A stretch of DNA of 64,000 nt from contig CAXMSE010000039.1 of NCBI GenBank assembly GCA_964196195.1, forward strand, positions 66,329-130,328. Reading direction: 5' to 3'. The DNA comes from an uncultured Gammaproteobacteria bacterium (lineage in GTDB: Bacteria; Actinomycetota; Acidimicrobiia; Acidimicrobiales; Aldehydirespiratoraceae). The translations under genes were made by a program, and so were the position numbers. How positions within the stretch are numbered: the stretch's first letter is position 1; the number at the start of each line of letters is the position of its first letter. The notes under the pieces were generated by a model, which was not told where the DNA came from, did no database searches, and saw only the letters and a program-made list of their open reading frames with translations. This document shows, piece after piece, positions 1-23,400 of the stretch.

Positions 1-380
1 GACACGAGGTCGCCCTGTCGTTCGGTTGCTTGTTCGGCCAGGGAGAGATCCACGGCCCGGCGCAGCACTGCTACCCGGAGCCGAGCCATCGCCCGTTCCG
101 CCACCCGAAGCATCAACAGCTGGGTGATTAGGGACAACAGGCTCACTACGATGACGGTGATAGTGGTGATGATGGCCAGACGGGCCAAAACGTCGCTGTC
201 GACCCCGGAGTCGGCGAGCAGGCCATCGTCGATGATCTTCTGGAACAAGATCGGCACCGCGATACGGCCCAGTCCGAGCAGGATTCCCGCGGCGACCATC
301 GAACCGATGACCGTGCGGAATTCAGGAGTGAATTCCAGGCCCTTGCGGATGATCGCGAACGCGCTGCGGTCGTCGGTCAC
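1..380 (-). CDS. ABC transporter permease/ATPase, 5' fragment (gene continues past window start)
   Basis: My own minus-strand translation from GTG at 380 gives VTDDRSAFAIIRKGLEFTPEFRTVIGSMVAAGILLGLGRIAVPILFQKIIDDGL..., which looks like the N-terminal TM region of a type-I ABC exporter. The start overlaps the stop of the upstream ABC gene (GTGA, 377-380). It is absent from the ORF track because it is truncated. Confidence 0.55.
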   Translation of the reverse strand, partial: MTDDRSAFAIIRKGLEFTPEFRTVIGSMVAAGILLGLGRIAVPILFQKIIDDGLLADSGVDSDVLARLAIITTITVIVVSLLSLITQLLMLRVAERAMARLRVAVLRRAVDLSLAEQATERQGDLV

Positions 381-2125
381 CCTGCCACTTCCTCGGCCCG
401 GTAGGCCTCGACCAGGCGCCGGTAGGCGGGATCGCCGAGGAGCTGCTGATGGGTGCCCACCGCCCGCACATTCCCGTCGCTCATGAGAGCCACCCGGTCG
501 GCGGCAACCATGGCGGCCACACGATGGGTGACCATCACGACGGTGGTGGGGAGATCGCCAAGGCGGGCGAGGATGCGTTCCTCGAGGGCCGGGTCGACGG
601 CGGCGGTGGCGTCGTCGAGCAGAATCATCCCCGGCCTGCCCGCCAAGGCACGAGCGAGGGCGATCCTCTGGCGTTGGCCACCGGAAAGCGTCACCCCGCG
701 CTCTCCCACGACGGTGGCGAAGCCGTCGGGGAGATCGTGTTCGAGATCGTCGGCTCCGGCAATGTGCAGGGCATCGATGATCTCGGCCTCATCACGGCCG
801 CGCCCGAAATCGGCGTTACCGCTGATGGTGCCGGTGTAGAGAACCGCCTGCTGGGAGGCCAGGGTGACACGCTGCCTCAGCTCCTCGTCGGCCACCTCGG
901 CGGCGATGACCCCTCCGAGCTGTACGGATCCCGCATCGGTGGCTCTCAGTCGAGCCAGCACCTCAAGCACGGTGGATTTGCCGCTCGCGGTCGACCCGAC
1001 AAGGGCGAGCGTCTCGCCGGGTTGGATGTCGAGGTCGAGATCGTTGAGCCGGCTTCTATCGACCGGTCCCACCCGCACACCGCGGAGGCTCGCGCCGAGA
1101 GGGCCGGCCGGGAGCAAGGAGGTGCCGGTCGAGGTGCGTAGCGGATCGTCGGGCTCGACCCTCAGTGAATCGATCCGTCTGCGGCCAACCACCGAGAGAG
1201 GGAGATCGGTGAGGAAGAAGCCGATCACCTGCATCGGAAAGGCCAGCACCCCGAACAGGGCGACTGCCTCCACGAGGCCACCAGGCTCGAGAGCACCGGA
1301 GTTGACGCGCTGGGCGCCGACCACCACGATCAGGACCATCGCCATCTGGGGCACGAAGGCGAAGCCGTTGTTGATCGCCGTGTGGAGCGACTGGAGGCGA
1401 ACCCGGCTGGCACGATGGGTGTCGACGATGCTCTCGAACCGGTCGAGTTCGGCATCTTCGCGGCCGAGGGTCTTGATCACCTGGCTGCCGGCGATTATCT
1501 CGCTCGCGGCGGCGGTGACGTCGGCGTTGGCTGCCCGCTCCGTCGCGGTGGGGGGTTCGAGCCAGGACGCGGTGGCCCAACTCATCATCAACACGAAGGG
1601 AAGCACGCCGATCGTGGCGAGCATGAGGGGGATGTCGAGTAGCGCCAGGCCCACCACCGCGAAAACGATCATGCTCAGCACCCCGATCGTGTAGGGGAGC
1701 GGATGGATGACGTCGACCGCGGCCTCGGTGTCGGCATCGAGATGGGCAAGAAGTTCTCCCGGTGGACGTGAGCGCACCCGGTCGAGCGACACGCTGACTA
1801 TCCGACGGGCGACATCACGTTGCAGACCCGCTCGAGCGCGGGCGGCAGTCATTCCGGCGAAGTAGCGACGGACGATCACACCGGCCGAGCGAAACACCAT
1901 CACACCCACAAGAAGAGCCACCGCAGCCCATTCCCGCGCGGGTGCGCCCTCGTTGAGGGGTACGAGCACTTCGTCGGTGGCCCAGCCGAGCGCTACCGCC
2001 GATGCAACTGATCCGGCCGCGTAGAACACCGACCCCGTGACGGCGATCCACAAGGGCCGTGGGTAGGCGCGGGCGTAGCCCCGCACGAGCCGGAGGCCGT
2101 CGGCGATGGGAGCGCTTCCGGTCAC
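377..2125 (-). CDS. ABC transporter, fused permease/ATP-binding subunit (MdlB/MsbA-type exporter half-transporter)
   Basis: 582 aa. N-terminal half has 6 hydrophobic segments. Walker A is GSTASGKST, the ABC signature is LSGGQRQRIALARAL, and Walker B is ILLDDATAAVD. Confidence 0.9.
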   Translation of the reverse strand: MTGSAPIADGLRLVRGYARAYPRPLWIAVTGSVFYAAGSVASAVALGWATDEVLVPLNEGAPAREWAAVALLVGVMVFRSAGVIVRRYFAGMTAARARAGLQRDVARRIVSVSLDRVRSRPPGELLAHLDADTEAAVDVIHPLPYTIGVLSMIVFAVVGLALLDIPLMLATIGVLPFVLMMSWATASWLEPPTATERAANADVTAAASEIIAGSQVIKTLGREDAELDRFESIVDTHRASRVRLQSLHTAINNGFAFVPQMAMVLIVVVGAQRVNSGALEPGGLVEAVALFGVLAFPMQVIGFFLTDLPLSVVGRRRIDSLRVEPDDPLRTSTGTSLLPAGPLGASLRGVRVGPVDRSRLNDLDLDIQPGETLALVGSTASGKSTVLEVLARLRATDAGSVQLGGVIAAEVADEELRQRVTLASQQAVLYTGTISGNADFGRGRDEAEIIDALHIAGADDLEHDLPDGFATVVGERGVTLSGGQRQRIALARALAGRPGMILLDDATAAVDPALEERILARLGDLPTTVVMVTHRVAAMVAADRVALMSDGNVRAVGTHQQLLGDPAYRRLVEAYRAEEVAG

Positions 2126-2189: not shown

Positions 2190-3701
2190 TCAAGCGATGA
2201 TGGCCAACTCGATTCCCAGTTCCTGCTGCACTTCGTCTCGCCGTCGGATACTCCACGAGACGCCGCCACCACCGGTTGGGCCGAGTCTCAGAATGCCGGG
2301 CCTGGTGGCGACGAAGTGCCTTCGACTGAGAGATCGCGCGTGGGTGTCGTGGTGTGTGAACCTCCACCACCGCAATGCCACCCCCAACCCACTTGTGAGG
2401 TAGTGCAGATACGCCTCGGGGTAGATGCTCGCCTCGTCGAGCCGAACAAACCCCCGATGGGCCAGTTCGGCCAGTCCCGCGTTCAGCTCGGTTGGCGAAA
2501 CATCGACATCGAGCAGCTCGCGGACCCTTGAGCGGAGCCCCCCACCGTCGAGGTCGCCTCCGTGGTTGACCAGGGCCGAAATCGGCAGGGCTGTGGCAGG
2601 TACTCCAAGCTTGTTTGCCGATGTGATCACGTCGAGTAGGGCCGCAAGCGCAGTGGAGGAACCGGCGTCGAGGTCGTGATCGAACGGATCGGGCCTTTTC
2701 TCTGTGTCGGGGGGAAAGGCCGCGAGGCAGCGGGCCGTCGCTTCGATGGTTGCGGTCGGCTGGTCTGACGCTGTCGCCCCATCTGGGTCGACCGCCACCA
2801 GAGCCGACACCGAGCCATCGCCGGAATCAAGGTCCAGCTCGACCGTGGAGCGCGCCGCAGTGGGAGAAGGTTGGGAAGCGAGGGCGCTGACCACCCCAAC
2901 CGTCGCATGCAACAATCCAAGGGTGCCCGGACGCGCGGTTCCGGGGCCGTGGGGATGCTGCGACGCGGCAACCTCGAGACAAAGCGGAGGCGGGGTGGTC
3001 GGGTCTTGATCGACATGACCAAGGGCCTCAACCGCGGCCACCGCATCAGCGGGCGTGGCCGCGGAGCTCAACACGGCTTCGGCAAGCTGGGCCACGATCA
3101 CGTTCGCGTCGGCGGGCCGGTAGCCACCCTCCACCGGGGTGCTGCGGCCGTTGATGGCGTCGATCAGTTCCCAGAATCTGAAGTCGCTCGGCCCGGTCGC
3201 GGCGAGGTCCTCGAGGAGCAACTGAGCCTCGCCGTGGCGGCCGGCATCGGCCATCGCCTGGGCGGTGAGGATCCACAGCATGGGCACGACTCGGCCTTGT
3301 TCGGTGTTGAGACTCACCGCCCTCGCCAACTGGGCGAGGCCGTCGAATCGGCGCCCCGACATCCACAACGCCGAGCCGTACGAGGCCCTGATTCCTGTGT
3401 CCTCAGGCGCGTGTCGCACCGCCAACCGAAGCAGGTCGGCCGCCGTGGTGTGGTCTTCGGCTTCGAGGAATTCGTTTGCCGCAGTAAGAGCCAGCGATGC
3501 CGCGCATCTCGCCAACATCGGAGTCTTGGGATCGCCGGGGTCGGCTTCGGCCAGATAGGCGTCGACATCGCGGGCGAGACTGGGGAGTTCGATGCGGCCG
3601 GCCTGGATCGTCTCGGCCGTGGTGGCCGTGACCGGAAGCGGAACAGGGGGCACGTCGAGTAGTTCGGCCAGTGCCTCGGTGGGTTGGATCCAGTGGGTCA
3701 T
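2190..3701 (-). CDS. Hypothetical cytoplasmic protein, N-terminal TPR-like helical repeats (503 aa), translationally coupled to the giant gene
   Basis: The track ORF 2190-4118 overlaps the giant gene by 420 nt. The internal ATG at 3701 (MTHWIQPTEALAELL...) overlaps the giant gene's TGA as ATGA (3698-3701). There is no signal peptide or TM segment. The N-terminal ~190 aa are helical and repeat-like (LRLAVRHAPEDTGIRASYGSALWMSGRRFDGLAQLARAV...). I recognise no catalytic motif. Confidence 0.6.
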   Translation of the reverse strand: MTHWIQPTEALAELLDVPPVPLPVTATTAETIQAGRIELPSLARDVDAYLAEADPGDPKTPMLARCAASLALTAANEFLEAEDHTTAADLLRLAVRHAPEDTGIRASYGSALWMSGRRFDGLAQLARAVSLNTEQGRVVPMLWILTAQAMADAGRHGEAQLLLEDLAATGPSDFRFWELIDAINGRSTPVEGGYRPADANVIVAQLAEAVLSSAATPADAVAAVEALGHVDQDPTTPPPLCLEVAASQHPHGPGTARPGTLGLLHATVGVVSALASQPSPTAARSTVELDLDSGDGSVSALVAVDPDGATASDQPTATIEATARCLAAFPPDTEKRPDPFDHDLDAGSSTALAALLDVITSANKLGVPATALPISALVNHGGDLDGGGLRSRVRELLDVDVSPTELNAGLAELAHRGFVRLDEASIYPEAYLHYLTSGLGVALRWWRFTHHDTHARSLSRRHFVATRPGILRLGPTGGGGVSWSIRRRDEVQQELGIELAIIA

Positions 3702-6700
3702 TTCGGGAACACCGGCTGGTAGGACGCCATCATCTGCTTGAGGCTTGCCACGTACTCGGCCTCGCTCATTTTCAGCTGGGTCAGCACCGCCTGGGTGGCG
3801 CGGGGGTTGGCTCTCATCGTGCGGGCCGCGTCGACGAGTTGCTGGTTGGGCAACGGCTGACCAATGCGCCCTGCGACATATGAGGCCCGGTCGACTGCCT
3901 TGGAAACCGACTTGGCGTCGTCGTAATGGCTCATGGCGGCTTGTTGCTGGGTGAACAGCCCTTTCATCTCCGCCGCACCGATCCGGGTCGGGTCCGCAGC
4001 CATGTCGAGCCCCGCGAAGGTACGTTCCGCGCCCCACGCCGTATCGATATCGGCCGCGTTCGCCAGGGGGGTGTTGAGGCCTTCGGCCCGCTCGATCTGC
4101 TGAAGTTCGCTGTCCCACGTGCGAAGGTCCATCTGGCCGAGTTCGTTACGGTCGATGATCGCCTGCCCGGAGGTGGAGTAGCTGCCGGCGTCGCCGGCGC
4201 GATCGCCGAAGGTGAACACCTCGGTCGAACCCTGAGCAGATTGCCGAGCCCGGGTGTAGCCCATCGGATAAGCATCAGCCTGACCCGCACCGGCCCCGAA
4301 ACCTCCGTAGGACCTCATGTCCATGTTGTCGCCGGTCAGACGCCGAGCCGCGGCGGCCGGATCGTCGGCATCGCCGAGTCGGTTGACCGCCTCGCCCAAC
4401 GAGATCCCTTCTTCACGAGCCAGGATCACCGCCGGATCGGTGGCCGAATTGAGGCGGAGCTCGGCCGCTCGTTGGTGCAGCTGGCTGAGTCTCGACTGCA
4501 AGCGTTGCTGGGTCTGGGTGTAGGTCTCGCCCGCCCGCCTCGCGCTGTCGAGCTGATCGCGGGTGAAACTGGCGACGATGGTGCGGTCGGCATCGGTCAT
4601 GACGGATCGCCCCGCTCCGACCGACCCGCTGTTGCCCATCATCACCTCGTTTGGGTGAAAGCCGACCTCAGCCGCGAAATCGTCGACCGCATCGGTCACA
4701 CCCTGACGGCTCGCGGCACCGGTGAGCTCGTCGTGCATGTTTACGACGCTCTGAGCTAGTTCGTCGCTGACATTCCCGGCCGCCTCGGCTCGACCCATCC
4801 CCCCCATCCCATCACCTTGAAATAGGGATCGGCGGGCCGCGTCGGCCGCATCCTCAGCTTCCGCCAACGCATCCATCGCGCGCGCTGTATCGGCGGAGTT
4901 GCCGGTGGCTGCCGCAGCTCGGGCCGCGGCGCGTGCCTCCTCGGCTGCCTCGGCGAGACGCGCTGCCTCGGACATCCGCCCCGGCGCAGCCGCCGCCGTC
5001 TCCGCGACCCCGGTCGGCCCGATCACCCGCGCCGTACTGGCGGCATCACCAGTGGCGTCGAGTACCCGCGCCGTGCTCGCCGCGTCGCCGGTGGCGTCGA
5101 GCACCCTGCTCACATCGGTTGCCTCCGCGGCCAGGTCCATCGTTCTCGATACAGCGACCAGTTCGTCGGCGTGGGACAAGACGCCCGCACCGGCCAAGGT
5201 TGTGCCGATGTCGAGCACCCCCATGGCGACCGATCCCAGCCTCGCTCCCAGAGGGCGATCACCGTCCATGGCGTCGTAGAGGTCGCGGCCCGGTATGAAC
5301 ATCGCGGCGGTGTCGATCGGATGACGGATGAACTGTCCACCCAGCGCGACTCCGACGCGACCGGCGGTTACCGCGCCCTGCTGAATACTCTCCTGGGCGT
5401 CGCCGAAGGTGCCCCCGGCGAGCATGCCGGCGGCGTCGTAGATCGTCTCCGCAGTTCCTTCGCCGAGAATCTTCCAGTTCTCGAGGTCGGTGGCGGCCTG
5501 CACCACGACACGGGTGGCATCGACCATGATGCCCGGTATCTCGGTGGCATCGTTCCACGATGCCTGTGCGGTCTCGGAGAAGATCTGGCCCCAGGTGTCC
5601 CTGAGCGTCGCCAGATCTTGATCTCTCTCCCGCCCCTCGAGTGCTGCCAGCGCGAGGTCCCGCGCCTCGATCTGGGCTCCCAGTCTGTCGACTTCGTCCC
5701 AGCCGGCGCGGATTTCGGTCATCTCGGCGTCGTTGTCGGCGATACTGCGCCCTGCCATGTCGCCGAACCGTTGTTCTGCTTCCTCGTCGCTGTACTGCCC
5801 GGCGACGAATCGCTCGTGATGGGAGTCGCGGGCCCTGCTCGCCTCGCTCGCGGCCGCGATTCGTTGTTCGATCGTGGCGCGGTCGAGCATCTCGGTGCCG
5901 TCGGGAGTGTCCCACGCGTAGAGATCGTCGGCATTGGCTTGAATCGGGTTGCCATGTTCGTCGAGCACGGTGGCCGCAGGCGCGGTGCGGCTGGCTGGTT
6001 CGACACCGGCTCCCTGCAGGGTGGCCCGCACCCTGCCAGCGCCCCCCTCGCGCCAACTGGTGAGGAGGTCGCCGGCGGTGAGGCCGCTCTCGGCGAGAGT
6101 GGCGGCGGTGATCCCCATGGCTGCAATCAGTCCGATCAGTCCCGCGGCGGCTGCTTCTCGGTTGGTCGGCGAGTCGTCCGCGGCTGCGCCCGACGCTGAT
6201 GCGGCACCGAGAGGGACCGAGCCGGGTGCGCCTCGGGTACCCAGCACCGTGCCGAGGTTTCCGCCGATCTCGCCCTGATTGACCATCGCCGTTATGGACT
6301 GGATCATCGATGCGACCTCAGGATCACCCGGCAGGCAATGGTGGCACCGGTATCGGAATATCCCCGATGGGAACACCCCGCGAACGGTGACGTTGGGACC
6401 GTCGGCGGAATCGAAGTCGTTGAGTATGTAGATCTGACCGGGACCGCCCGGGGCAAGCACCTGGTGGAAGCCAACTCTCGCGCATTCGCCTACCGGCGAT
6501 GGGAGGGGCACCCCGTCGGCGCCCAGCTCACAAACGAGGTCGAGATCGGAGTTGCGAGGGCCCCCGTTTATGTAGCCGTAGCCATCCTGATCGAACTCCA
6601 CGGCCAAGCGGGGTTCGGGCCGGGCGAGGTAGTAGGTGAGCTCGCTTCTGACACCTCCGGGGCCCTCCTCGCCGAACTCGATGCCTGAGTCCCAGCACGC

Positions 6701-9604
6701 GGCCTGGTTGGGGGCCACGAACCTTCTGGTGAGCGAGGCCGACGTGTCGGGATCGAACGTGGTGGCCGCGGCCAGGGTGTCGGTGACCTCTTGTCTGACC
6801 GGACACTGGCGGCCACCGTCGTCGCGTGCGGGATCATCAGCCGACGGGGGAGGATCGGTGAGTGCAGGGGCGTCGGTGAGTGAGATGTCGAGTTCGCAGG
6901 GGGCCCACAGCTCGGGCGACCCGGTCAGGCCGGACGCCTGTTCACCGCCGACTAGAACTACCAGTCCCTCGCGTGGTTCGACATCGGTGCGGGTGCTGGC
7001 CACCCCTCGACCGCAGGTTCCGTCGGCTCTCCGACTCGGGCTGTCGAAGAGCAGATCACTGAAATTGACAAATGGTCCGATCACTCCCAGCGAACCCTGC
7101 TCCACTAGTAGAGCTTGGGTCGGTTCCTGCCAGCCGTCGAGCAACTGGCGTGACGCCGTGCCTTCCGCGGAGTAGAGGAGGTCGCAACAAATGCCATCAA
7201 CGAGTTCGAACGCGAACGTCTCCGTACCCGTGATCTTCTGGAAAGACGACGATATGTAGGCATCGATGGCCAGGTCGCGTGTGATGGGGTCGGGTGCGAC
7301 GATGAACGAAGGCTCGAGCGTGATGACGAGGTCGGGCTTTTGTCTGGGAGCGATTCCGCCATTCAGGGTGATCTCATCCCAGCCCACGGCGTCGTTGAGA
7401 GTATCGGCCCCGGTGACTGCGGGTTCTTGGGCTGCTGAGGGTTGGGTGAGCGATGGTCCGAAGGTGGCCCCGGCGATGATGATGAGGGCGACACCTCCTG
7501 TGGCGGTACGGGCATTGGCCAGGGCGGGACGGCGTCCGATCACCAGCCCGGCAGCGGTGGCTCCCGACAGGAACGACAGGGCCAACCCGATGGAGATCAC
7601 TCCGGTACGGTTCAGGAGCCCGGCCACCTGGGTGGCGACGAGACCCGCCGCGAATGCGAAGATCGCCAGCGCGCTCCGCTTGGCCATCAGGCCCTTCGGC
7701 GACGTGACGATGGCGAGATTGCGGCCCTGAGTCAGACCCAGCGCCGCTCCACCGACGAGAGCAGCGGCCATGGCCCACACCGGGGCGCCGGCCGCGAAGA
7801 TCGTCATCATCACCAATGCCCCGCCGAGAGCGAAAATGATCCGCAGGAGCTCCATGCTGGGCCGGATTCGACTCGGTCGGCGGGCCAATAGCAGGGCGAG
7901 AGCGAGGCCCGCCAGCGACAGGACGAGCATCACCACTCGGGCCACCCGCAGCAGGGTGGCGGTGATACCACCGGAGTCTCCCCCCGCCGATGAGGATGCA
8001 GCAGGCTGGGAGTCGGCCCCTTCGTCGTCGCCGCTGCCGTCGCTGTCTCGAGGAGCCAGAGCGAAGGTCCCGGCCAGTCCTGCTTCCACGGCATCGGCGA
8101 GGTAGGGGGGAAGCGGCTCGAACAGGGTTTCGAGATCGGTGATCTCGACATCGGCGCACGTGCGAGCGATCGCGGCAGTTTGCCGGAGCCACTCGCGCGC
8201 GGTGGCATCGGCTTTGTCGAGGTCGCCGGACTGGGGGGCCGAGACCACGATGTCGACCATCGAAGCGAGATCGCCCGACACGATGCGGCCGAAGGTGGTG
8301 TCTGAGGTGGGCCTGTCTTCGACGGAGCAGAGTCGCTCGGCTTCCTCCGCACTGCGACCGTCGGGAAGAACGAACAGCGTGAGCCGAATCGACCGCTCGA
8401 AATCGTCGGCGATCTCCCACGTGCAGGTGCCATTGGTACTCGGGAAGAGATCCGAGAAACCCGAGCTCAACGACGCGGCCGCGGGTCCGGGCGACCCGAC
8501 CTGCTCGTTGAAGGCGGAGATCGTGAAGCCGTCGATGGCCGGACATGGCAAGACGAGCGACTCAATCGGCTGCTGTAGGGCCCCTTCGTCGATGGCTGCC
8601 TCGTATGCGGCGGCCTCAACCTCGCAGTCGACCGCCAATATGAGGAGAGCGTCGGCGACGCGGGTGGCTTGGGCTTCCACGTAGGGCCGCACGTCGTCGT
8701 CGGCCTCGATACTGAGGGTGAGAGCAGCTGGCGCAGAATGCTGATCGACTCCATTGCAGCCGTTTTCCCTGTCGGGGAAAGGAAACCCGCTGATGAATCC
8801 CCTATCGGTCACCGCCGGCACAACATCGACCACGACGGTGTAGGAGGCGCTCTGGTAGCGGCATTCGATCCGGGGATTCGATGACAGGATGCGGGTCGGT
8901 AGCTCGTCGACGACCGAGATGCTCGAAGTGTTGAGGGTGGCGAACTGGAGTGCCGCTGAACGGGTGAGCACCGTGCCTGCCGGAATATCGAGCTGGAGGC
9001 AGGCGCCTACTAGCGCGGCGTCGAGTGCTTCCAGCTGGGCGGCAGCGGCATGGTCGAACGCCGGTACTTCGAGCGGAGTGGGGCATGTTTCTGCGAGTGG
9101 GGCGACCATGTCGGCCATCGACTCGGCCACGGCACGTAATCCTGCGACCGTCTCCTCGTTGGTGTCGGCCCTCAGATCGAATTCTGCGGTGATCGCGAGT
9201 GGCGGTCGGAGCTGGCCCATGTCGATCGCGCGGCGATCTCTGAAGAACCCTTCGTAGGGCAGCGCTTCGAGCTTGCAAATGCGTTCAGGCCGCGCCCCTT
9301 GGCGCGTGAACCGCACATCGACGGTAACGGCCGGCCCGATTCCCACGTAGGAGCATCTGGTTCGGATGAGGGTACTCGCCACCTCAACGCCGTTGAACCC
9401 GTTGGAGGCGACGATTTCCTCATAGTCGCGAGGTGTGGCTCCGGGCACGGCAGGGCAGGTGAAACCGTCGTCGAGAGCCTCGATCGCGGCGATGACCGCG
9501 GCGTCTTCAGGAGTGGGCGGCAGCAGATCGTCCTGAGCGGCTGCGGGCGCGGCGCCCAGGGCGACCGAGCCGATCATCGCCACTGCGAACGCGACTCGAA
9601 GCAT
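3698..9604 (-). CDS. Giant membrane protein of unknown function (1,968 aa): signal peptide, 3 x Cys4 ectodomain modules, 6-TM block, second Cys-rich ectodomain, 7th TM, ~800-aa tail
   Basis: Uninterrupted 5.9-kb ORF. The N-terminus MLRVAFAVAMIGSVALGAAPAAAQ is signal-peptide-like. Cys sit at aa 50/84/110/174, 202/248/283/327 and 354/394/426/483. Hydrophobic helices span aa 547-718 with RR/K-rich alternate loops. There are 10 Cys in aa 800-1090, and aa 1151-1172 (AAAAGLIGLIAAMGITAATLA) is hydrophobic. No known catalytic motif was seen. Confidence 0.8.
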   Translation of the reverse strand: MLRVAFAVAMIGSVALGAAPAAAQDDLLPPTPEDAAVIAAIEALDDGFTCPAVPGATPRDYEEIVASNGFNGVEVASTLIRTRCSYVGIGPAVTVDVRFTRQGARPERICKLEALPYEGFFRDRRAIDMGQLRPPLAITAEFDLRADTNEETVAGLRAVAESMADMVAPLAETCPTPLEVPAFDHAAAAQLEALDAALVGACLQLDIPAGTVLTRSAALQFATLNTSSISVVDELPTRILSSNPRIECRYQSASYTVVVDVVPAVTDRGFISGFPFPDRENGCNGVDQHSAPAALTLSIEADDDVRPYVEAQATRVADALLILAVDCEVEAAAYEAAIDEGALQQPIESLVLPCPAIDGFTISAFNEQVGSPGPAAASLSSGFSDLFPSTNGTCTWEIADDFERSIRLTLFVLPDGRSAEEAERLCSVEDRPTSDTTFGRIVSGDLASMVDIVVSAPQSGDLDKADATAREWLRQTAAIARTCADVEITDLETLFEPLPPYLADAVEAGLAGTFALAPRDSDGSGDDEGADSQPAASSSAGGDSGGITATLLRVARVVMLVLSLAGLALALLLARRPSRIRPSMELLRIIFALGGALVMMTIFAAGAPVWAMAAALVGGAALGLTQGRNLAIVTSPKGLMAKRSALAIFAFAAGLVATQVAGLLNRTGVISIGLALSFLSGATAAGLVIGRRPALANARTATGGVALIIIAGATFGPSLTQPSAAQEPAVTGADTLNDAVGWDEITLNGGIAPRQKPDLVITLEPSFIVAPDPITRDLAIDAYISSSFQKITGTETFAFELVDGICCDLLYSAEGTASRQLLDGWQEPTQALLVEQGSLGVIGPFVNFSDLLFDSPSRRADGTCGRGVASTRTDVEPREGLVVLVGGEQASGLTGSPELWAPCELDISLTDAPALTDPPPSADDPARDDGGRQCPVRQEVTDTLAAATTFDPDTSASLTRRFVAPNQAACWDSGIEFGEEGPGGVRSELTYYLARPEPRLAVEFDQDGYGYINGGPRNSDLDLVCELGADGVPLPSPVGECARVGFHQVLAPGGPGQIYILNDFDSADGPNVTVRGVFPSGIFRYRCHHCLPGDPEVASMIQSITAMVNQGEIGGNLGTVLGTRGAPGSVPLGAASASGAAADDSPTNREAAAAGLIGLIAAMGITAATLAESGLTAGDLLTSWREGGAGRVRATLQGAGVEPASRTAPAATVLDEHGNPIQANADDLYAWDTPDGTEMLDRATIEQRIAAASEASRARDSHHERFVAGQYSDEEAEQRFGDMAGRSIADNDAEMTEIRAGWDEVDRLGAQIEARDLALAALEGRERDQDLATLRDTWGQIFSETAQASWNDATEIPGIMVDATRVVVQAATDLENWKILGEGTAETIYDAAGMLAGGTFGDAQESIQQGAVTAGRVGVALGGQFIRHPIDTAAMFIPGRDLYDAMDGDRPLGARLGSVAMGVLDIGTTLAGAGVLSHADELVAVSRTMDLAAEATDVSRVLDATGDAASTARVLDATGDAASTARVIGPTGVAETAAAAPGRMSEAARLAEAAEEARAAARAAAATGNSADTARAMDALAEAEDAADAARRSLFQGDGMGGMGRAEAAGNVSDELAQSVVNMHDELTGAASRQGVTDAVDDFAAEVGFHPNEVMMGNSGSVGAGRSVMTDADRTIVASFTRDQLDSARRAGETYTQTQQRLQSRLSQLHQRAAELRLNSATDPAVILAREEGISLGEAVNRLGDADDPAAAARRLTGDNMDMRSYGGFGAGAGQADAYPMGYTRARQSAQGSTEVFTFGDRAGDAGSYSTSGQAIIDRNELGQMDLRTWDSELQQIERAEGLNTPLANAADIDTAWGAERTFAGLDMAADPTRIGAAEMKGLFTQQQAAMSHYDDAKSVSKAVDRASYVAGRIGQPLPNQQLVDAARTMRANPRATQAVLTQLKMSEAEYVASLKQMMASYQPVFPK
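5024..5108 (-). repeat. Tandem 39-nt (13-codon) duplication inside the giant gene
   Basis: On the + strand, cacccgcgccgtactggcggcatcaccagtggcgtcgag is followed by tacccgcgccgtgctcgccgcgtcgccggtggcgtcgag and a partial third unit. The protein reads SRVLDATGDAASTARVLDATGDAASTARV (aa ~1498-1526). Confidence 0.8.
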
Positions 9605-9722: not shown

Positions 9723-11435
9723 TCAGGCGAAGCGGTCGCGCAGCTCTCGTTTGAGGAACTTGCCATTTGCGTTCTGGGGAAGTGGTTCATCGATGAAGAA
9801 GACGGCTTCAGGGTGTTTGAACCTGGCAATCCGACCCTCGAGATGGGTGGCGAGCCCCGCCGCGTCGAGATCAGACCCATCCACACGAAGGATGGCCACC
9901 CCGACTTTCTCCCCGAGTCGGTCGTCGGGGAGGCCGAAGACGGCCGCCTCGGCAACGCCAGGGTGCTCATATATGGCCGACTCGACCTCTGAGCAGTAGA
10001 CGTTCTCTCCGCCGCGGATCACCATGTCCTTGGCCCTGTCGACGATGTGCACGAAGTTGTCTTCATCGACCCTCACGATGTCGCCGGTGTTGAACCAGCC
10101 GTCCTTGATTGCTTCGTCGGTGGCTTCGGGTCGGTTGAGATAACCCTTCACAACTGCTGGCCCGCGCACACAGAACTGACCCACCTGATCGGATGGGAGC
10201 TCATTGTTGTCGTCGTCGACCAGCTTCCACTCGAAGGTCGGCATGATCGGCCCGGCCGAGGTGGGTCGAGCCGTATAGAAGGTGTTGGCCACCGCGGTGA
10301 TGATGCCGTGGGTTTCGGTGAGCCCGTATCCGGTGCTCGGTTTCACCGCCCCATCAGTGCTGTCGATCTTGTCGACCAGATCGGGTTGAAGGGCGGCGCC
10401 TCCTCCTCCCATCTGGGCGAGTGTCGACGTGTCGCGAACCGACCAGTCGTCGTGGAGCAGCATCTCGCGGCTCATGGTGGGCACACCCGTGAAGGTGGTG
10501 ACCTTCTCCCGTTCGATCAATTCGAGCGCTCGGCCCGCATCCCATTTGTGCAGGAAAACGATCTTGGCCCCGATCGCAGTGCCGGGGTGCAGCACACACC
10601 CGTTGGCGGTGACATGGAAGAGGGGAGTGGGGACCATGATGGTGATCGGGGCTTCGGTGGCTTTCTGGGGCACGGAACCGGTGGCGGCCGCCACCTTCGC
10701 CCCGGCCATGGAGGCGACCGTGTTAGCGAATCCCATGTGCATCAAGTTGTGCACCGACCCACGATGGGTTAGTTGAGCGCCCTTGGGTGGGCCGGTGGTG
10801 CCGGATGTGTAGAAGATGCAGATGTCGTCGTCGGGCTGGATCTCGGCGGGGGGCAACTCGACCGGGGCGTCGTCGGGACGCACCACTTCACTCCATCGAC
10901 TCGCGTCGCTCGGTAGCTCACGGTCGGAACGCACCGAGATGACATGCATGGGAGCGTCGTCGCGAAGAATGTCGAGGTGTGGGATCACCCGCTCAAGGCG
11001 CTCATCGTCGGCAATGAGGACCTTGGGCTTCGAGTCGCTGAGCCCGTATTCCATCTCCGACCCTGTCCACCAGGCGTTCATGCCCACCACTGCGGCACCG
11101 ATGGAGATGGTGGCCCAGTAGGCCAAGATCCACTCGGGGTAGTTCCGCATGGCAACGGCGACACGGTCTCCTGGCTCGATGCCGTGCTGGTCGACCAGCA
11201 GATGAGCCAGTGACCGAACCGCGGCGTGGGCATCGGCGTAGGTGTGGCGCTCGTCTTCGAAGACGAGGTAGGGATTGTCGCCGTGGGCGGCCGAAGACTC
11301 CCAGATCTGGCGCATGTTGGCGGGCGCGTTGTCGAACACTCGCATCTGAATTCCGCGGACGTCCTGCAGCGACCACGAGAACGGGGCGCCGTCGGAGGTG
11401 AGTTCGTTCCAGGTTTGGGTCAGTTGATCGATCAC
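9723..11435 (-). CDS. AMP-dependent acyl-CoA synthetase/ligase
   Basis: 570 aa. Contains the AMP-binding motif FYTSGTTGPPKGA, plus GYGLTET, GWFNTGD and a C-terminal NANGKFLKRELR. Confidence 0.9.
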   Translation of the reverse strand: MIDQLTQTWNELTSDGAPFSWSLQDVRGIQMRVFDNAPANMRQIWESSAAHGDNPYLVFEDERHTYADAHAAVRSLAHLLVDQHGIEPGDRVAVAMRNYPEWILAYWATISIGAAVVGMNAWWTGSEMEYGLSDSKPKVLIADDERLERVIPHLDILRDDAPMHVISVRSDRELPSDASRWSEVVRPDDAPVELPPAEIQPDDDICIFYTSGTTGPPKGAQLTHRGSVHNLMHMGFANTVASMAGAKVAAATGSVPQKATEAPITIMVPTPLFHVTANGCVLHPGTAIGAKIVFLHKWDAGRALELIEREKVTTFTGVPTMSREMLLHDDWSVRDTSTLAQMGGGGAALQPDLVDKIDSTDGAVKPSTGYGLTETHGIITAVANTFYTARPTSAGPIMPTFEWKLVDDDNNELPSDQVGQFCVRGPAVVKGYLNRPEATDEAIKDGWFNTGDIVRVDEDNFVHIVDRAKDMVIRGGENVYCSEVESAIYEHPGVAEAAVFGLPDDRLGEKVGVAILRVDGSDLDAAGLATHLEGRIARFKHPEAVFFIDEPLPQNANGKFLKRELRDRFA

Positions 11436-11500: not shown

Positions 11501-12433
11501 GTGAATCCTGACGACGCCTTCCATCCCGCCATCAGAATTGGGGAGGAGGCAGCCGCGGCGATCGACCGAGGCCGTCCGGTGGTAGCGCTGGAGTCCACCA
11601 TCTTCAGCGGTCTCGGCCTGCCTGCCCCGTCCAACCGCGAGTGTTTCGATCGCTGTGTCGCAGCTGTCCGCCTCGGCGGGGCGGTGCCGGCCCTCACTGC
11701 GGTGATCGACGGTACGGCGTGGGTGGGAGTCGAGGAGGATTTTCTCGACCGCGTCTTGTCAGGTTCGGCCAAGGTTGCGGCTCGCGATCTTCCCCATGCT
11801 CTGGCGTCGGGGCTCGATGTCGGCGTCACCACGGTGTCGGCCTCGCTCACCCTCGCCGCAAGTGCGGGCGTGCAGGTGTTCGCGACCGGTGGTATCGGGG
11901 GAGTCCATCGCGGAAGTGAGTTGAGCGGCGACATCAGCCACGACCTCACGGCACTGGCCCGTCACCGGGTGGTCACTGTGTCGGCCGGAGCGAAGGCCTT
12001 CCTCGACCTGGCCCGCACCCTCGAGTATCTCGAGACTCTCGGAGTCCCGGTGGTGGGATGGAATACCAATCGCTTCCCGGCCTTTTACGTGAGAGACAGC
12101 GGACTACCGCTACACACCACCGTCACGTCAGGAGAAGAGGTCGCGAAAATGGTCCGGTCGGCTGCCGCAGTAGGTCACCCCGGAGGCCTGCTGGTGGTCA
12201 ATCCGATCCCCGAGCCAGACGAGCTCGACCCGACCCGCATCGGTGCGGCACTGGAGGGGGCTCTGGCCGAGGTGGCGGCTCAGGGCCTCCATGGCCCTGC
12301 AGTCACCCCGGTGGTGCTGGCCGCCATAGCCTCGGCCACCGACGGCGACAGTGTGCCGGCCAACTTGGCCCTGGCCGAGAGCAATGCCGCGGTTGCCGCC
12401 GAGATAGCCGTTGGCCTCAGCTCGCGGGCTTGA
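11501..12433 (+). CDS. psuG: Pseudouridine-5'-phosphate glycosidase (indigoidine synthase A-like)
   Basis: 310 aa with a GTG start. VVALESTIFSGLGLP, FATGGIGGVHRG and the overall length are typical of PsuG/IndA. Confidence 0.75.
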   Translation: MNPDDAFHPAIRIGEEAAAAIDRGRPVVALESTIFSGLGLPAPSNRECFDRCVAAVRLGGAVPALTAVIDGTAWVGVEEDFLDRVLSGSAKVAARDLPHALASGLDVGVTTVSASLTLAASAGVQVFATGGIGGVHRGSELSGDISHDLTALARHRVVTVSAGAKAFLDLARTLEYLETLGVPVVGWNTNRFPAFYVRDSGLPLHTTVTSGEEVAKMVRSAAAVGHPGGLLVVNPIPEPDELDPTRIGAALEGALAEVAAQGLHGPAVTPVVLAAIASATDGDSVPANLALAESNAAVAAEIAVGLSSRA

Positions 12434-13650
12434 TGTCCACGTTCGATCCCGACGCCCTGATCCTGGAGATCCTCACCGATCCGACCGTGATCCCGGATCC
12501 CTATCCCAAGCTGCGCGAGCTGCGCGAGAGGGCCCCGATCTTTCAGACCTCGCTCACCGGCACCTGGATCTTCACCCGCTACGACGACATCCGTTCAGTG
12601 CTGCGAGACCCCAGATGCGGGAGCCCGCCGCGCGCGAGCCGCACGGGGGAGCGAATTGGTATCGATGGTGCTCGACGCCGCGATCGAGACCCGGACTCAC
12701 TCTCGATGTTGTTTCTCAATCCACCCGATCACACCCGCATCCGGGGGCTCGTGAGCAGGGCGTTCACGCCCCGCCGGATCGAGCGGCTCCGCCCCGAGAT
12801 CACCGCCATGACCGACGGCCTGCTCGACCAACTCGGCTCGGAGGGAGATCTCATCAGCGCTCTGGCGTTCCCGCTCCCGGCCAATGTCGTGAGTGCACTT
12901 GTCGGGGTGCCGGCAGGCGACCGCGATGCGCTACGGCCCCTGATCACCGATCTCGGGGTGGGCATAGAGCCCACCGCGTCGGTCGAAGAGATAGCGATCG
13001 CCGATGCCGCCGGGCGGCGCATCCGCGATTATCTCGTGGAGCTCATCGCCGAACGCAGGCAGCACCCGAGAGACGACCTCCTGTCGGTGCTGATCGCGGC
13101 CAGCGACGGCGACGGCGACCGACTCAGCGAGAACGAGGTGATCGTCAACACGATCCTGATCTACGCCGCCGGTTTCGAAACGACCACCCACCTGATCGGC
13201 AATCTCGTGAGAAACATGGTTGCCCACCCCGATCAGCTGGCGCGAGTCCGTGATGATCGCGCCCTGGTCCCCAACGCGGTCGAGGAGATACTTCGCTTCG
13301 ACCCACCGGTGCAGATCGACGGCAGGTTCGTGCTCCACGACATCGAGGTGGCCGGTCACCACATTCCTGCCGGATCATCGCTAGTCACCTCGCTGGCTGC
13401 GGGAAACCGCGATCCCGCCGTGTTCGACGAACCAGATCGCTTCGATGTTGGCCGGGTCGACACCCAGGTCCTGTCGTTCGGTTCCGGTGTGCACTACTGC
13501 CTCGGCGCGGCCCTTGCTCGCCTCGAAGGCCAAATCGTTCTCGACCGCCTCCTAGAGCGTCACCAGAGCTGGGGCATCACCGCCGAGCCCTCCTGGCGCA
13601 AACGAATCACCTTGCGCGGCGTCGAGCGACTCGATGTCGCGTTCAACTGA
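12433..13650 (+). CDS. Cytochrome P450
   Basis: Internal ATG (MSTFDPDALILEIL...) overlaps the psuG stop (TGATG). The EXXR motif is EEILRFDPP and the heme-Cys loop is FGSGVHYCLGAALARLE. The track ORF's upstream extension (from 12058) lies inside psuG. Confidence 0.85.
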   Translation: MSTFDPDALILEILTDPTVIPDPYPKLRELRERAPIFQTSLTGTWIFTRYDDIRSVLRDPRCGSPPRASRTGERIGIDGARRRDRDPDSLSMLFLNPPDHTRIRGLVSRAFTPRRIERLRPEITAMTDGLLDQLGSEGDLISALAFPLPANVVSALVGVPAGDRDALRPLITDLGVGIEPTASVEEIAIADAAGRRIRDYLVELIAERRQHPRDDLLSVLIAASDGDGDRLSENEVIVNTILIYAAGFETTTHLIGNLVRNMVAHPDQLARVRDDRALVPNAVEEILRFDPPVQIDGRFVLHDIEVAGHHIPAGSSLVTSLAAGNRDPAVFDEPDRFDVGRVDTQVLSFGSGVHYCLGAALARLEGQIVLDRLLERHQSWGITAEPSWRKRITLRGVERLDVAFN

Positions 13651-20499: not shown

Positions 20500-23400
20500 C
20501 TAGAGGTCGGCGGCCTCCCCGCCGGTGGCCGAAAGGTCGGCCAACTCGCCCGCTCGTGCCTCCACCTCGGCCATCGCCAACCCCAGATCGGACAGCTCGG
20601 CCTCGGTGGCTCCCTGTTCACTGAGAAACACGAACACCATCCGGCTGATGGGCTCGCCGGTGGCGGCTCTCACCGCCGCCGCATAGCTCGCACCTTGGAG
20701 TCGGTAGCGCTCGAGCTTGGCCGCGATGTCGTCGTCGCCCTGGACGTGGTCGGTCTTCCAGTCGACGATGACAAGGCCCTCGGCATCCCGGTAGAGCAGG
20801 TCGACATAACCCTCGACCAGGCGCTCGCCGACCGGAGCGGCCACCCAGACTTCGCGCCAGTGTTTCGAGCGGGTGGCGGCCTGAGCGATGGGGCTCTCTA
20901 TGGCGCTCGAGGCCAAGCGGCGGATCACCGCGGTGCGGTTGGTAACGCCTTCCGCGGCGGCCTGGGCCGCGGCGGCATCGTCGAGGCCGGCGCCGGTGGC
21001 GAGATCGACGATCTGGAGGACGCCGTGAACGGCCCGTCCGACAGCGGTGCCGTAGCGCCCCTTCTGCCAGGGAGGCAGGTCGAGATCGCGGGAGCGCTTG
21101 TGCAGGCCGGGATCGGCTGCATCGGCAACTTCGCGGGCCAGGGTGGTTGCCGCCACGACCATGCGAGTGGAGGCAGCGGCGAGGGCAGCGCTGCGCTCGC
21201 GGGCCCAGAGGGCGCGCTCGGGCACGGCGGCGCGCTCGGGGGCGGTGGGGGCGGTGTAGGACGTGGGGGTGGGTACGAAAGCGGTGGCTGCGGTGGACCT
21301 CAGGGCGGGCTCGGCCATCACCGATGCGCTCGTCCGCGCCTTCTGGTCGAGACGATGCAGGCAGACCACCAGATGATCGCGGGCGCGGGTTGCCGCCACG
21401 TACATCAGCCGCAGCCGCTCGTGTTCGTCCATCTGATCGTCGATCGGCTTCCAGGAGTCGTAGCCCTCCGATGCCACGATGCTGGAGAGCTTCACGAGGG
21501 CCGATCCGTCCGGTGGGAAATCAATCGACGGCCCCCGCGATGGGCGCTGGAACTGGGTGGTCATCCCCGCGAGCACGGTGATCGGAAACTCGAGTCCCTT
21601 TGCTCCGTGGATGGTCATGATGCGCACCGAATCGTCGTCGGTCTCGGGCAGCACCGTTTCTGAAACCCGGGCGTTGTCGGCTCCCTGGAGGCGGGCCCAC
21701 TGCAGGTACGCCCTCAGGTCGGTGCCTCCGGCATCGACCCAGGCCCGGGCCTGATCGGTGACGAACCGAAGCCGCCGCCACACATCGCGAGGCGCTCCTG
21801 TGGCGATCGCGCTCTCCAACACGGCACGATCGCGAACAACACGGTCGAGCAGTTCGGCGGGGGTTGACCAGAGGCGAGCCTCGTGCAGTTGGGCGAGGTG
21901 GGCGAGCCCATCGGCCACCGGGTGCCCCTCGGTGCCCTCGGGTGGGTCGGACCGCAGGGAGAAGCGGCCTTGGTGACCCAGTCGCCAGTGGGCGAGGTCG
22001 TCATCGCCACAGCCATAGACGAAGGACCGCAATGCGGCGACCGTGGCGAGCTCGTCGGTGGGGTCGGCCACCGCCCGAAGCGTGAGCATCAGCTCGCGCA
22101 CTTCTCGCGACGCGTAGACGAGGGACGATGTCTCCGCTCGATAAGGCACACCGACGCGATCGAGGGCTCGTTCGAGGGCGGGCAGGCTCGTTCGGGCGGG
22201 TAAGAGGATGCACACATCGCTGGGAAGCGCTTCGCGCCAGCCTCCTTTGTTGTCGCCGACCATCCACGGCTGGGGCCCCCTCAGTGCCCCGGCGACGGTG
22301 AGAGCCACGTCGCGCGTCTCGACCAGGCGTAAGGAATCGGCCTTGAGTTTCTCGGCGATCGGCTCGCTGCCGAGTAGTGCGACCGAGGGGCCGGCCGGTG
22401 CGGCTTCCTCGCGGTGGGCGCTGAGGGCTACGTATTCGGGTTGGCTGCCTGGCTCGGGCCGGATGAGTTCGCCGAAGACGTCGTTGATCCAGCTAATGAT
22501 CGGGGCGGTGGTACGGAAGTTGACGGTGAGCGAGGGCCGGTCGTGGATACGATCACGGGCCGCGAGATAGACGCCGATGTCGGCTCTTCGGAATCTGTAG
22601 ATCGACTGCTTGGGGTCGCCCACCACGAAGAGGCGGCCGGGGTCGAGGGGGAGATCGTGCCAGCTCCGGCCTCCGGGGTCGTCCTCGGATGTGGCGATGA
22701 GTACCGCCAGTTCGATCTGGATCGGGTCGGTGTCCTGGAACTCGTCGAGCAGGAGTCGGGTGTAGCGCTCCCGCAGCGATGAACGAACCGCCTGGCCGTG
22801 TACGGGATGGCTGAGCACGCGTCGGGCGTGGACGAGGAGATCGTGGAATTCGAGACGTCCCTCGGCTCGTCGCTGCTCGGCGGAGCGAACGACGAAGGTG
22901 CCGATCCGGCCGCCGAGATGATGAAGGGCACCGGTGGTGACTCGGGCAACCGCTGCATCACATTCGGAGGCGAGTGAGCGCACCGTTCGCCGAATCTCGT
23001 CGACATCGATTGCCCAGTTGCTCTTGCGACCATTGCGGCCTGGTTTCAAGGCCCGGGTGGCGCCGTTTCGCTCGCCCATGTCGGCTGCGATTGCCATGGC
23101 GTCGATCTCGTCGAGAGCACCGGCGAGGTCGGCGCGATTCTCGGCGAGGCGACCGAAGAACTTCAAGAGGCCGTCGTCGGCCTCGGGCGCGCAATGGCGG
23201 CGAAGATTCAGAACCTCGTCGAAGCGGGCCAGCAGGGAAGCCCCGTCGAAGGGCACGGGGGGCGGAGGGTCGAGGTCGAGCCTGTCGCTCACGAGGTCCC
23301 AGTTGGCGGCCATCTGGAGGGCCAGCGAACGCAGGGCATCGAGTTTCACGCCGGCGGCCTCGAGCGCGAGCAGGGAGCGAGACATCTCGTCGTCGTCGAG

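Follow-up and report, generated by a model that had tools for sequence, protein, structure and literature searches.

A 1,968-residue membrane protein of an Acidimicrobiales genome, built from exchangeable modules, as a candidate envelope-spanning transducer

Introduction

What might a bacterium do with a protein of 1,968 residues in which no segment resembles a curated family? The question is raised by a gene on the minus strand of a 64,000-nucleotide stretch of contig CAXMSE010000039.1 (assembly GCA_964196195.1; Acidimicrobiales by its GTDB lineage), here called the window. The encoded protein, termed the giant protein or the query, comprises a signal peptide, a first Cys-rich ectodomain, a six-helix membrane block, a second Cys-rich ectodomain, a seventh transmembrane (TM) helix and a long tail consisting of region A and modules B and C (Table 1). 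A sequence-only reading of the window had presented it as an orphan with a sensor-like exterior wired through the membrane to an interior of no recognisable character. The analysis reported here places the protein in a large family with a widespread, strongly conserved C-terminal domain, so that neither the orphan status nor the featureless tail stands, while the sensor-like arrangement is still favoured. The reading preferred here, to which a probability of roughly 45% is given, sees a transducer that spans the envelope and whose cytoplasmic, enzyme-like output can be exchanged.

Results

The giant protein belongs to a large family

The giant open reading frame is a genuine gene. It runs from an ATG at 9604 to a TGA at 3698-3700, and the GC content of its third codon positions (GC3) is 0.74-0.79 in each quarter, the same as in the neighbouring genes. 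P0001, the NCBI copy of the protein, begins 7 codons downstream, and the homologues favour the ATG at 9604. The claim that this is the largest reading frame holds for the two listed stretches. Word-indexed searches recovered colinear full-length homologues with identities of 79%, 79%, 73%, 63% and 63%, together with one at 32%, on independent contigs from the Acidimicrobiales metagenome-assembled genomes OFTM10, OFTM81, OFTM89 and DHS20C19 and on further metagenome contigs; an assembly chimera, which the sequence-only reading had held out as a possible refutation, is thereby excluded. The more general suspicion of an artefact, whether a chimera or several genes joined by sequencing error, could draw on the unusual size of the gene and on one locus (L010) that has the membrane block and the tail-bearing part as two genes, yet the colinearity in four genomes, the uniform GC3 and a domain order shared with over 30 distant relatives 1,200-2,070 residues long leave it practically no probability.

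Searches of the whole giant protein and of six segments (E<=10) against Pfam (2025), NCBIfam (2026), PADLOC and PDB sequences gave no matches, and Walker A and HExxH motifs are absent, so that the lack of a recognisable catalytic or signalling family noted from the sequence is borne out. No defence-system model of PADLOC-DB v2 matched the giant protein, its partner or P0007. Similarly, no recognised signalling output domain (histidine kinase, Ser/Thr kinase, GGDEF/EAL, adenylate cyclase or anti-sigma) was matched in Pfam or NCBIfam by the query or by 10 relatives carrying the N-terminal scaffold or other tails, scanned in full.

In contrast to the orphan view, 178 family clusters were retrieved at E<=1e-3 when a profile of residues 769-1968 (alignment A2) was run exhaustively with HMMER against 1.84 billion representative proteins; 123 of them pass E<=1e-10 and 50 pass E<=1e-30. 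Ectodomain 2 with helix 7 is covered by about 45 clusters, region A by about 35-40, module B by about 90 and module C by about 100. Word-indexed searches had returned 7 relatives for the whole protein, all from Acidimicrobiales, 3 for B+C and none for the membrane block, which was swamped by hydrophobic words. The word-indexed search thus missed more than 95% of the family, and orphan calls from that tool alone are unsafe. Queries rich in Ala, Gly and Leu appear to saturate the candidate list of such searches. A lineage-restricted orphan with a few close homologues, as the 7 proteins and the missing curated family might suggest, is therefore refuted by the 178 clusters; homologues of the membrane block occur in about 50 of them and B+C reaches well beyond Acidimicrobiales, and this view keeps only a very slight probability.

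Modules B and C are almost invariably found as a pair at the very C-terminus, and they end about 90 proteins with other N-terminal parts from Actinomycetota, Chloroflexota and Bacillota, including Acidimicrobiia, Anaerolineales, Natranaerofaba carboxydovora (complete genome), Clostridiales and Eubacteriales. Scanning metagenome contigs with the pattern GDSGSS added 21 B+C loci with GC contents of 34% to 75%, and one family locus, accompanied by BamA, comes from a diderm organism. Stand-alone B+C proteins span 146-440 residues; three that were looked up (375-437 residues) lie on contigs of only 1.4-1.5 kb, and the short ones are thus probably fragments. Nothing was found in plasmids and phages (tblastn with B+C) or in IMG/VR (B+C and the whole family).

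Tails are exchanged at helix 7

No segment of the giant protein is more conserved than helix 7, which has 95-100% identity where the whole protein has 63-79% and follows the pattern [DE]A-helix-AESG, acidic on both flanks. The query is 40% identical to P0018 over residues 1-1169 and unrelated to it beyond; likewise P0007 and P0021 are 39% identical over residues 16-1077 and unrelated thereafter. P0011, which bears a query-type tail, matches P0021 in the N-terminal part only; between the tails of P0018 and P0021 identity is 35%. The all-against-all comparison of 39 tails resolved at least four types and some singletons, with the G[ND]SGS...TDADR motif confined to the query type among the types compared. 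These alignments show that tails have been exchanged as blocks, with the breakpoint exactly at helix 7. Between the query and P0005, identity rises from 55% in ectodomain 1 through 64% in ectodomain 2, 70% in the membrane block and 82% in module B to 95% in helix 7, thus leaving the exterior to vary and the interior constrained. By the same comparisons the giant protein shows itself as a mosaic of independently evolving modules.

Modules B and C resemble an enzyme domain

The last 380 residues of the query-type tail form modules B and C, and module B is the slowest-evolving domain of the protein (82-91% identity). Across 48 diverse relatives the G, D and D of GDSGSSA.G..RSV.TDADRT are invariant, together with a K, an R and a P, whereas D, S, S, T, Y, D, Y, R, G, G, D and Q are near-invariant; the invariant spacing is G-x10-D-x-D, with the K and the R. 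In the query the motif reads GNSGSVGAGRSVMTDADR (Table 1). Module C contributes the motifs DxD..Y.G.G..G..D.YP.G.T..RQ, TSGQ, K-x-x-x-R and NPx. With conserved residues that resemble an active site, B+C looks like an enzyme domain. Two candidate assignments were rejected: a trypsin-like protease, suggested by GDSGS, because the conserved His is absent, and an SGNH/GDSL hydrolase, because the DxxH block is missing from the invariant list.

Nucleotidyltransferases of the Pol-beta superfamily, which includes the minimal nucleotidyltransferases (MNT), kanamycin nucleotidyltransferase, the GlnE and DrrA adenylyltransferases and the CD-NTases, share the motif hG[GS]-x9-13-Dh[DE]h. The query sequence GNSGS-x9-TDADR fits this motif, as do its relatives, in what is a pattern-level match only; exactly the motif's G, D and D are invariant in the 48 relatives, and further conserved residues (D, K and R) could take part in binding metal and phosphate. 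The likeness has its limits, since the residue before the G is not hydrophobic here and no nucleotidyltransferase family of Pfam, NCBIfam or PDB profiles was matched. The B+C motif is also compatible with a D-x-G-[ST] phosphate loop of the ASKHA type.

Described from the sequence as helical and Ala-rich, the tail does contain 18.9% Ala and is mostly helical in a low-confidence model. Region A comprises a juxtamembrane DExGNPI...W, coiled-coil-like helices, a conserved Gly-rich, weakly hydrophobic stretch (residues 1341-1480) and an Ala-rich repeat region, and its similarity to the region preceding B in the wider family is weak (hhalign 38%). The repeat region carries tandem copies of the 13-residue unit RVLDATGDAASTA. 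In the closest relatives, P0002 and P0003, the Ala-rich block adjoining this repeat has an extra duplication of about 50 residues (columns 1701-1748 of alignment A1), so that the region is a linker of variable length.

The N-terminal half contains a probable internal signal peptide

A hydropathy scan located hydrophobic segments at residues 1-24, six within 544-719, one at 1150-1175 and a weak one at 1458-1477. With the Cys positions, it leaves the signal peptide, both ectodomains, the six-helix block, helix 7 and the tail where the sequence-only reading had drawn them, and the K/R-rich block loops RRPSRIRPS, SPKGLMAKRS and RRPALANAR fall on alternate sides, as had also been described. The weak segment was rejected as an eighth TM helix, being too polar (+5.4 on a rough Hessa-type score), and the equivalent stretch of P0076 is not hydrophobic.

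All 22 Cys residues lie in the two ectodomains, 12 in the first (50-483) and 10 in the second, and none occurs in the membrane block or the 794-residue tail. Those of ectodomain 1 fall at 50/84/110/174, 202/248/283/327 and 354/394/426/483, so that the proposed three groups of four are confirmed as to number; as repeats, these Cys4 modules are only weakly supported, modules 1 and 2 aligning in register (hhalign E=5e-4) and module 3 matching nothing significantly. Ectodomain 1 is the fastest-evolving part and is absent from relatives that begin with the membrane block (P0010, P0048, P0056, P0058 and P0123). The widespread core thus consists of membrane block, ectodomain, helix and tail, to which the signal peptide and the Cys4 modules are a clade-specific addition. 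The Cys residues of ectodomain 2 lie at 806-1090, include CC (806/807) and CHHC (1087-1090) and are conserved 10 out of 10 in seven homologues. CHHC differs from CxxCH, and a heme-c site was therefore dismissed. The profile of the membrane block, whose conserved polar residues include RRPSRIRP, QGRN and ATQVAGLLNRTG, matches about 50 retrieved proteins with E-values down to 1e-130.

Helix 6 of the block resembles a signal peptide, with a basic n-region (ALANAR), a hydrophobic core and a c-region that ends PSLTQPSAA/QE (the slash marks the putative cut). The whole site reads ANAR-TATGGVALIIIAGATFGPSLTQPSAA/QE, and the small-x-small pattern with n-, h- and c-regions is present both here and at the N-terminal site. 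A [small]-x-[small]-Q-[DE] sequence follows the last block helix in 38 of 48 block-bearing relatives, and A-x-A-Q-[DE] also ends the N-terminal signal peptides of relatives, as at residues 21-26 of the query (9527-9544). At L010 the membrane block, including AAAQE, forms a separate gene of 290 residues directly upstream of the gene for P0015, which encodes a short N-terminal part, the helix and the tail. From these features we infer that the giant protein is probably processed into two chains at the internal signal peptide. Flaviviruses, for example, make polyproteins in which signal peptidase cuts at internal signal sequences. The resemblance lies in a TM helix with n-, h- and c-regions and an AxA site inside a long precursor, which would create a new N-terminus across the membrane; the differences are that the gene here is bacterial and chromosomal and that cleavage is suggested by the conserved motif and the gene fission.

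A partner gene with a constant core

The gene directly downstream encodes a protein of 503 residues in which no signal peptide or TM helix was found. Its TPR domain (residue 1 to about 190) is conserved in six partners and includes a TPR_14 match at residues 141-178 (30.3 bits against a gathering cutoff of 23.5), while the conserved core is formed by the C-terminal 200 residues or so (about 300-503). The 323-residue partner of P0018, which has a type 3 tail, matches residues 344-503 of the window partner (BLAST 1.7e-9; hhalign 96.8%) and the N-terminal half of the L012 partner (7e-45). In the latter the core is followed by a TM helix, PASTA and two SLH domains, and in the partner of P0030 (tail type 4, L036) by a TM helix and an ectodomain, the core of the P0030 partner matching the wider family (hhalign 71%). 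The core thus accompanies tail types 1, 3 and 4, and the one type 2 locus seen has a 263-residue partner that shows the TPR part only. In 13 of the 21 metagenome loci one adjacent partner family is present, directly downstream in 12, with gaps of 3-18 nt where measured, and upstream in L024. This family combines a core of about 330 residues with zinc ribbons or an FHA domain and is related to the L012 partner (BLAST 2.9e-4; hhalign 52% over 272 columns). Since the partner core stays constant across tail types, it is not a tail-specific immunity protein.

No neighbour other than the partner is conserved across the loci compared. Of the neighbourhood that the sequence-only reading had proposed to check, the partner therefore endures, whereas the ABC pair is syntenic with the closest relative (L003) only. 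This ABC exporter pair, whose twin would lie beyond the left edge of the window, and the acyl-CoA ligase that flanks the gene pair were accordingly rejected as parts of the system; their synteny is absent in L004, L005, L001, L012 and L037.

In three relatives the gene immediately upstream encodes a wall-anchored membrane protein of the type DUF2510-TM-(PASTA)-SLH, and the stop and start codons overlap (L004, 8955-10001; L005, 8964-10001; L037, 4811-6001); in L012 (14147-16255) the partner core and the TM-PASTA-SLH part form one protein, a Rosetta-stone link. No publication that combines DUF2510 with SLH turned up in a literature search. These genes lend some weight to the protein being a non-catalytic scaffold or tether that would link wall, membrane and cytoplasm by way of SLH or PASTA partners, disulfide-rich ectodomains, coiled-coil tails and TPR domains. 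It would serve in morphogenesis, division or envelope integrity, its conserved B+C residues binding and not catalysing. Such a strut would also suit the long helical, coiled-coil-like regions of the tail, the TPR and FHA modules of the partners and the chromosomal loci, which are not on mobile elements. It is nevertheless judged quite improbable: G-x10-D-x-D with K, R and the near-invariant Y, D, Y, R, D and Q, kept across phyla, is active-site-like, neither the window nor most loci outside Acidimicrobiales have the SLH component, and alternative outputs account better than a structural element for the swapping of unrelated tails.

An orthologous AAA_16/TPR STAND gene (54% identity) precedes the giant gene in L001 and L012, and neither STAND nor SLH neighbours were found in the window.

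Other features of the window and of related loci

Table 1 Features of the giant gene, its partner and flanking genes. Positions are those of the window; a slash in a motif marks a predicted cut.
Feature	Residues	Position	Strand	Basis or remark
Giant gene	1,968 in total	3698..9604	(-)	Reading frame and translation, uniform GC3, colinear homologues
Sec-type signal peptide	1-23	9536..9604	(-)	Hydrophobic segment; predicted cut AAA/QDD
Ectodomain 1	24-514	8063..9535	(-)	Three Cys4 modules
Acidic Ser/Gly/Asp linker	515-546	7967..8062	(-)	Translation, homologue alignment
Six-helix membrane block	547-725	7430..7966	(-)	Hydropathy; homology in about 50 representative proteins
Internal signal-peptidase-like site S-A-A/Q-E	723-727	7424..7438	(-)	End of helix 6; A725 and Q726 invariant
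Ectodomain 2	726-1150	6155..7429	(-)	10 invariant Cys; profile positions 1 to about 385, about 45 clusters
CHHC motif		6335..6346	(-)	Inside invariant Y-x-C-H-H-C-x-P-x-x-P-E-V-A
Helix 7	1151-1172	6089..6154	(-)	Gly/Ala-rich, acidic flanks; tail-exchange point
Tail region A	1173-1588	4841..6088	(-)	Homologue alignment, profile coverage, low-confidence model
39-bp tandem repeat		5020..5106	(-)	2.2 copies, 81% matches; encodes 13-residue repeat
Module B	1589-1722	4439..4840	(-)	Profile positions 810-960, about 90 clusters
Motif GNSGSVGAGRSVMTDADR	1657-1674	4583..4636	(-)	G1660, D1671 and D1673 are the invariant G, D and D
B-C insert	1723-1759	4328..4438	(-)	Only in the query's clade among sequences aligned
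Module C	1760-1968	3701..4327	(-)	Profile positions 995-1180, about 100 clusters
Partner gene	503 in total	2190..3701	(-)	ATG overlaps the TGA of the giant gene (ATGA)
ABC exporter, MsbA/type-I-secretion-like		377-2125	(-)	Twin would lie beyond the left window edge
Acyl-CoA ligase		9723-11435	(-)	Flanks the gene pair

Locus L001 (1-17992), from a marine member of the Acidimicrobiales, encodes a BTAD/AAA_16 regulator, an RCC1 protein of 13 repeats, the STAND NTPase, the giant gene and the TPR partner, and is inserted between rpoA-rplQ and truA-rplM-rpsI, a conserved ribosomal-protein neighbourhood. In the window itself, ARAGORN called a tRNA-Trp (cca) at 12257-12334 (+), inside the reading frame 11501-12433(+), whose place is taken in the syntenic relative by the Indigoidine_A gene, and also within the long upstream extension of a P450 reading frame (12058-13650); the call is probably false, or else the starts of these frames need revision. 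Three more large reading frames (1,130, 1,056 and 1,174 residues) lie at 20500-27046 (-) and 41788-45312 (+), and by tblastn they are unrelated to the STAND or SLH neighbours of other loci.

Among the relatives of BACON/Ig type (L014, L027, L029, L030 and L035; about 1,740-1,780 residues), B+C is present and the partner gene absent. A three-TM protein of 134-145 residues follows the B+C gene in L014 and L027, with a weak DUF2177 match in L014; L014, L029 and L030 have an ECF sigma gene downstream, joined in L014 by a zf-HC2 anti-sigma gene. Judged by gene content, these loci may represent a different regulatory wiring of the B+C domain.

Discussion

In the transducer envisaged here, signal peptidase would cut the precursor at two AxA/Q[DE] sites, yielding an exposed Cys-rich domain, with the membrane block as its anchor, and a type I membrane protein made up of ectodomain 2, helix 7 and the tail. 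The fast-evolving ectodomains may read something in or outside the cell envelope, and the signal would be relayed across the membrane by helix 7 to a cytoplasmic tail held or regulated by the core and the TPR domain of the partner. This tail would carry out a Mg2+- and nucleotide-dependent reaction, as its likeness to the motif of Pol-beta-type nucleotidyltransferases suggests, and different tails would provide alternative outputs on one input scaffold. The tail is placed inside because a signal peptide is followed by six helices with alternating K/R loops and by one more helix, and this topology agrees with the confinement of all Cys residues to the predicted outside parts. Further arguments for the transducer are the fast exterior and slow interior, the exchange of tails at helix 7 together with the enzyme-like conservation of B+C, and a partner that is cytoplasmic, constant and fused in relatives to signalling or wall-binding modules. 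The regulator-type STAND neighbours in L001 and L012 and the absence of the family from mobile-element collections point in the same direction.

Actinobacterial envelope signalling is organised around PASTA ectodomains and FHA partners, as in PknB, FhaA and FhaB/FipA. The present family is similar in having wall-binding modules (PASTA, SLH) outside and FHA-bearing or other adaptors inside, both encoded beside a membrane-spanning, enzyme-like protein. In contrast, it has no kinase domain, its orientation is reversed, with the N-terminus outside and the enzyme-like part C-terminal, and PASTA, SLH and FHA occur in the partners of some relatives only and not in the window.

Several observations weigh against a transducer of this kind. 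The tails of 39 relatives, of all types, contain 12 Cys in 25,579 residues (0.05%), about 12-fold fewer than other reading frames of the window (0.62%) and partners (0.56%), the N-terminal parts having 1.8%, and a cytoplasmic location does not explain this depletion. P0076 and four similar loci look wholly secreted, with a lipoprotein-type signal, six BACON/Ig domains and no helix before the tail, and they too end in B+C. Helix 7 itself showed no positive-inside bias across 54 proteins, and its hydrophobicity is borderline (about +0.5 on a rough Hessa-type sum). The lipoprotein P0142 carries a Pfam PT-TG pre-toxin domain directly before B (E=1.1e-6). Structure prediction lends no help: AlphaFold2 reached a mean predicted local distance difference test score (pLDDT) of 42.8 for the tail from a 5-sequence alignment, with module B below 50, and 32.9 for residues 24-1175. 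Foldseek searches with the low-confidence tail model returned at best cytochrome b562-like helix bundles at E>0.2, and none at E<=1e-3. Among 76 family members scanned against Pfam (sets of 18 and 48) or NCBIfam, none matched a nucleotidyltransferase family, and PDB profile searches with B+C alignments gave coiled-coil and low-complexity noise only, supporting no fold.

Part of this evidence is better accommodated by a delivered effector akin to a polymorphic toxin, in which the scaffold would display the tail, bind a receptor or translocate, and the Cys-free tail would be exported or handed to another cell. B+C would then be a nucleotide-using toxin domain, and the partner a chaperone, an adaptor or an unusual immunity protein. 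Polymorphic toxin systems, said to have been described by Zhang and co-workers in 2012, reportedly comprise CdiA-CT, Rhs/WapA and the LXG/WXG toxins with PT-TG pre-toxin domains. As in those systems, one conserved N-terminal scaffold here bears at least four unrelated, interchangeable C-terminal cassettes with a sharp junction, and the same C-terminal domain stands at the extreme end of many unrelated N-terminal carriers, including secreted BACON, PKD and PEGA types. A translationally coupled gene follows, and the near-absence of Cys from the tails is as in proteins that cross membranes unfolded; the marginal hydrophobicity of helix 7 and its acidic flanks count on the same side. PT-TG, a marker of polymorphic toxins (PMC13483458), gave P0142 its IMG name, "Pre-toxin TG", after the flanking domain, all other members looked up being named "hypothetical protein", and another member has a weak LXG match (E=0.011).

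Against this stands, above all, the partner, the core of which is the same across unrelated tail types, whereas an immunity protein co-varies with its toxin; the partners are moreover large (320-700 residues), their fused FHA, zinc-ribbon, TPR or PASTA-SLH modules are untypical of immunity proteins, and no other conserved downstream gene offers itself as an immunity candidate. For want of a co-varying immunity gene, the giant protein was not classed among the polymorphic toxin systems, even if its mode of action may be similar. Further differences are the length of the tails (600-1,000 against 100-300 residues), their predicted retention in the cytoplasm of the producer under the standard topology, and the conservation of B, which within the query's clade is the most conserved domain and not the most variable. 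No T5, T6 or T7 secretion genes, other nearby secretion-system genes, Rhs or filamentous repeats, or orphan toxin/immunity cassettes were seen at the loci compared, and phage, plasmid and viral collections yielded no family member. The query itself lacks a PT-TG match, and none of the pre-toxin or trafficking domains PT-TG, PT-VENN, PT-HINT, LXG, Rhs, FHA repeats and PAAR matched it in Pfam at E<=10. On balance a delivered effector is considered unlikely, though not to be dismissed lightly. The probability not taken up by the transducer and the alternatives discussed is reserved for something not yet considered.

A bolder version of the transducer, itself rather doubtful, would make the family an undescribed multi-phylum envelope machine. 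In it, the internal signal peptide would split the precursor into a polytopic membrane module and a receptor-like type I chain, the ultra-conserved Gly/Ala helix would couple the disulfide-rich ectodomains to interchangeable output cassettes of about 800 residues, the commonest cassette would carry a new nucleotide-transferring enzyme fold (B+C), and a new, universal partner domain would be wired, depending on the lineage, to FHA, zinc-ribbon, TPR or PASTA/SLH modules. If true, monoderm bacteria would possess a new class of device for outside-in signalling or for effector action.

The segments of the giant protein and the partner core are outside any curated family, and the module is undescribed in the literature searched. 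For genome scans the case carries a caution, the orphan status having been produced by a word-indexed search alone. If the transducer holds, Actinomycetota, Chloroflexota and Bacillota share a conserved module of three families absent from Pfam, NCBIfam and PADLOC: the membrane block with its CHHC ectodomain, the B+C domain and the partner core. Domain swapping at a transmembrane helix can be studied here as a clear natural experiment, and the family would add a rare bacterial internal signal peptide. It would represent a new kind of transmembrane device, for signalling or for delivery, equipped with what is probably a new enzyme domain.

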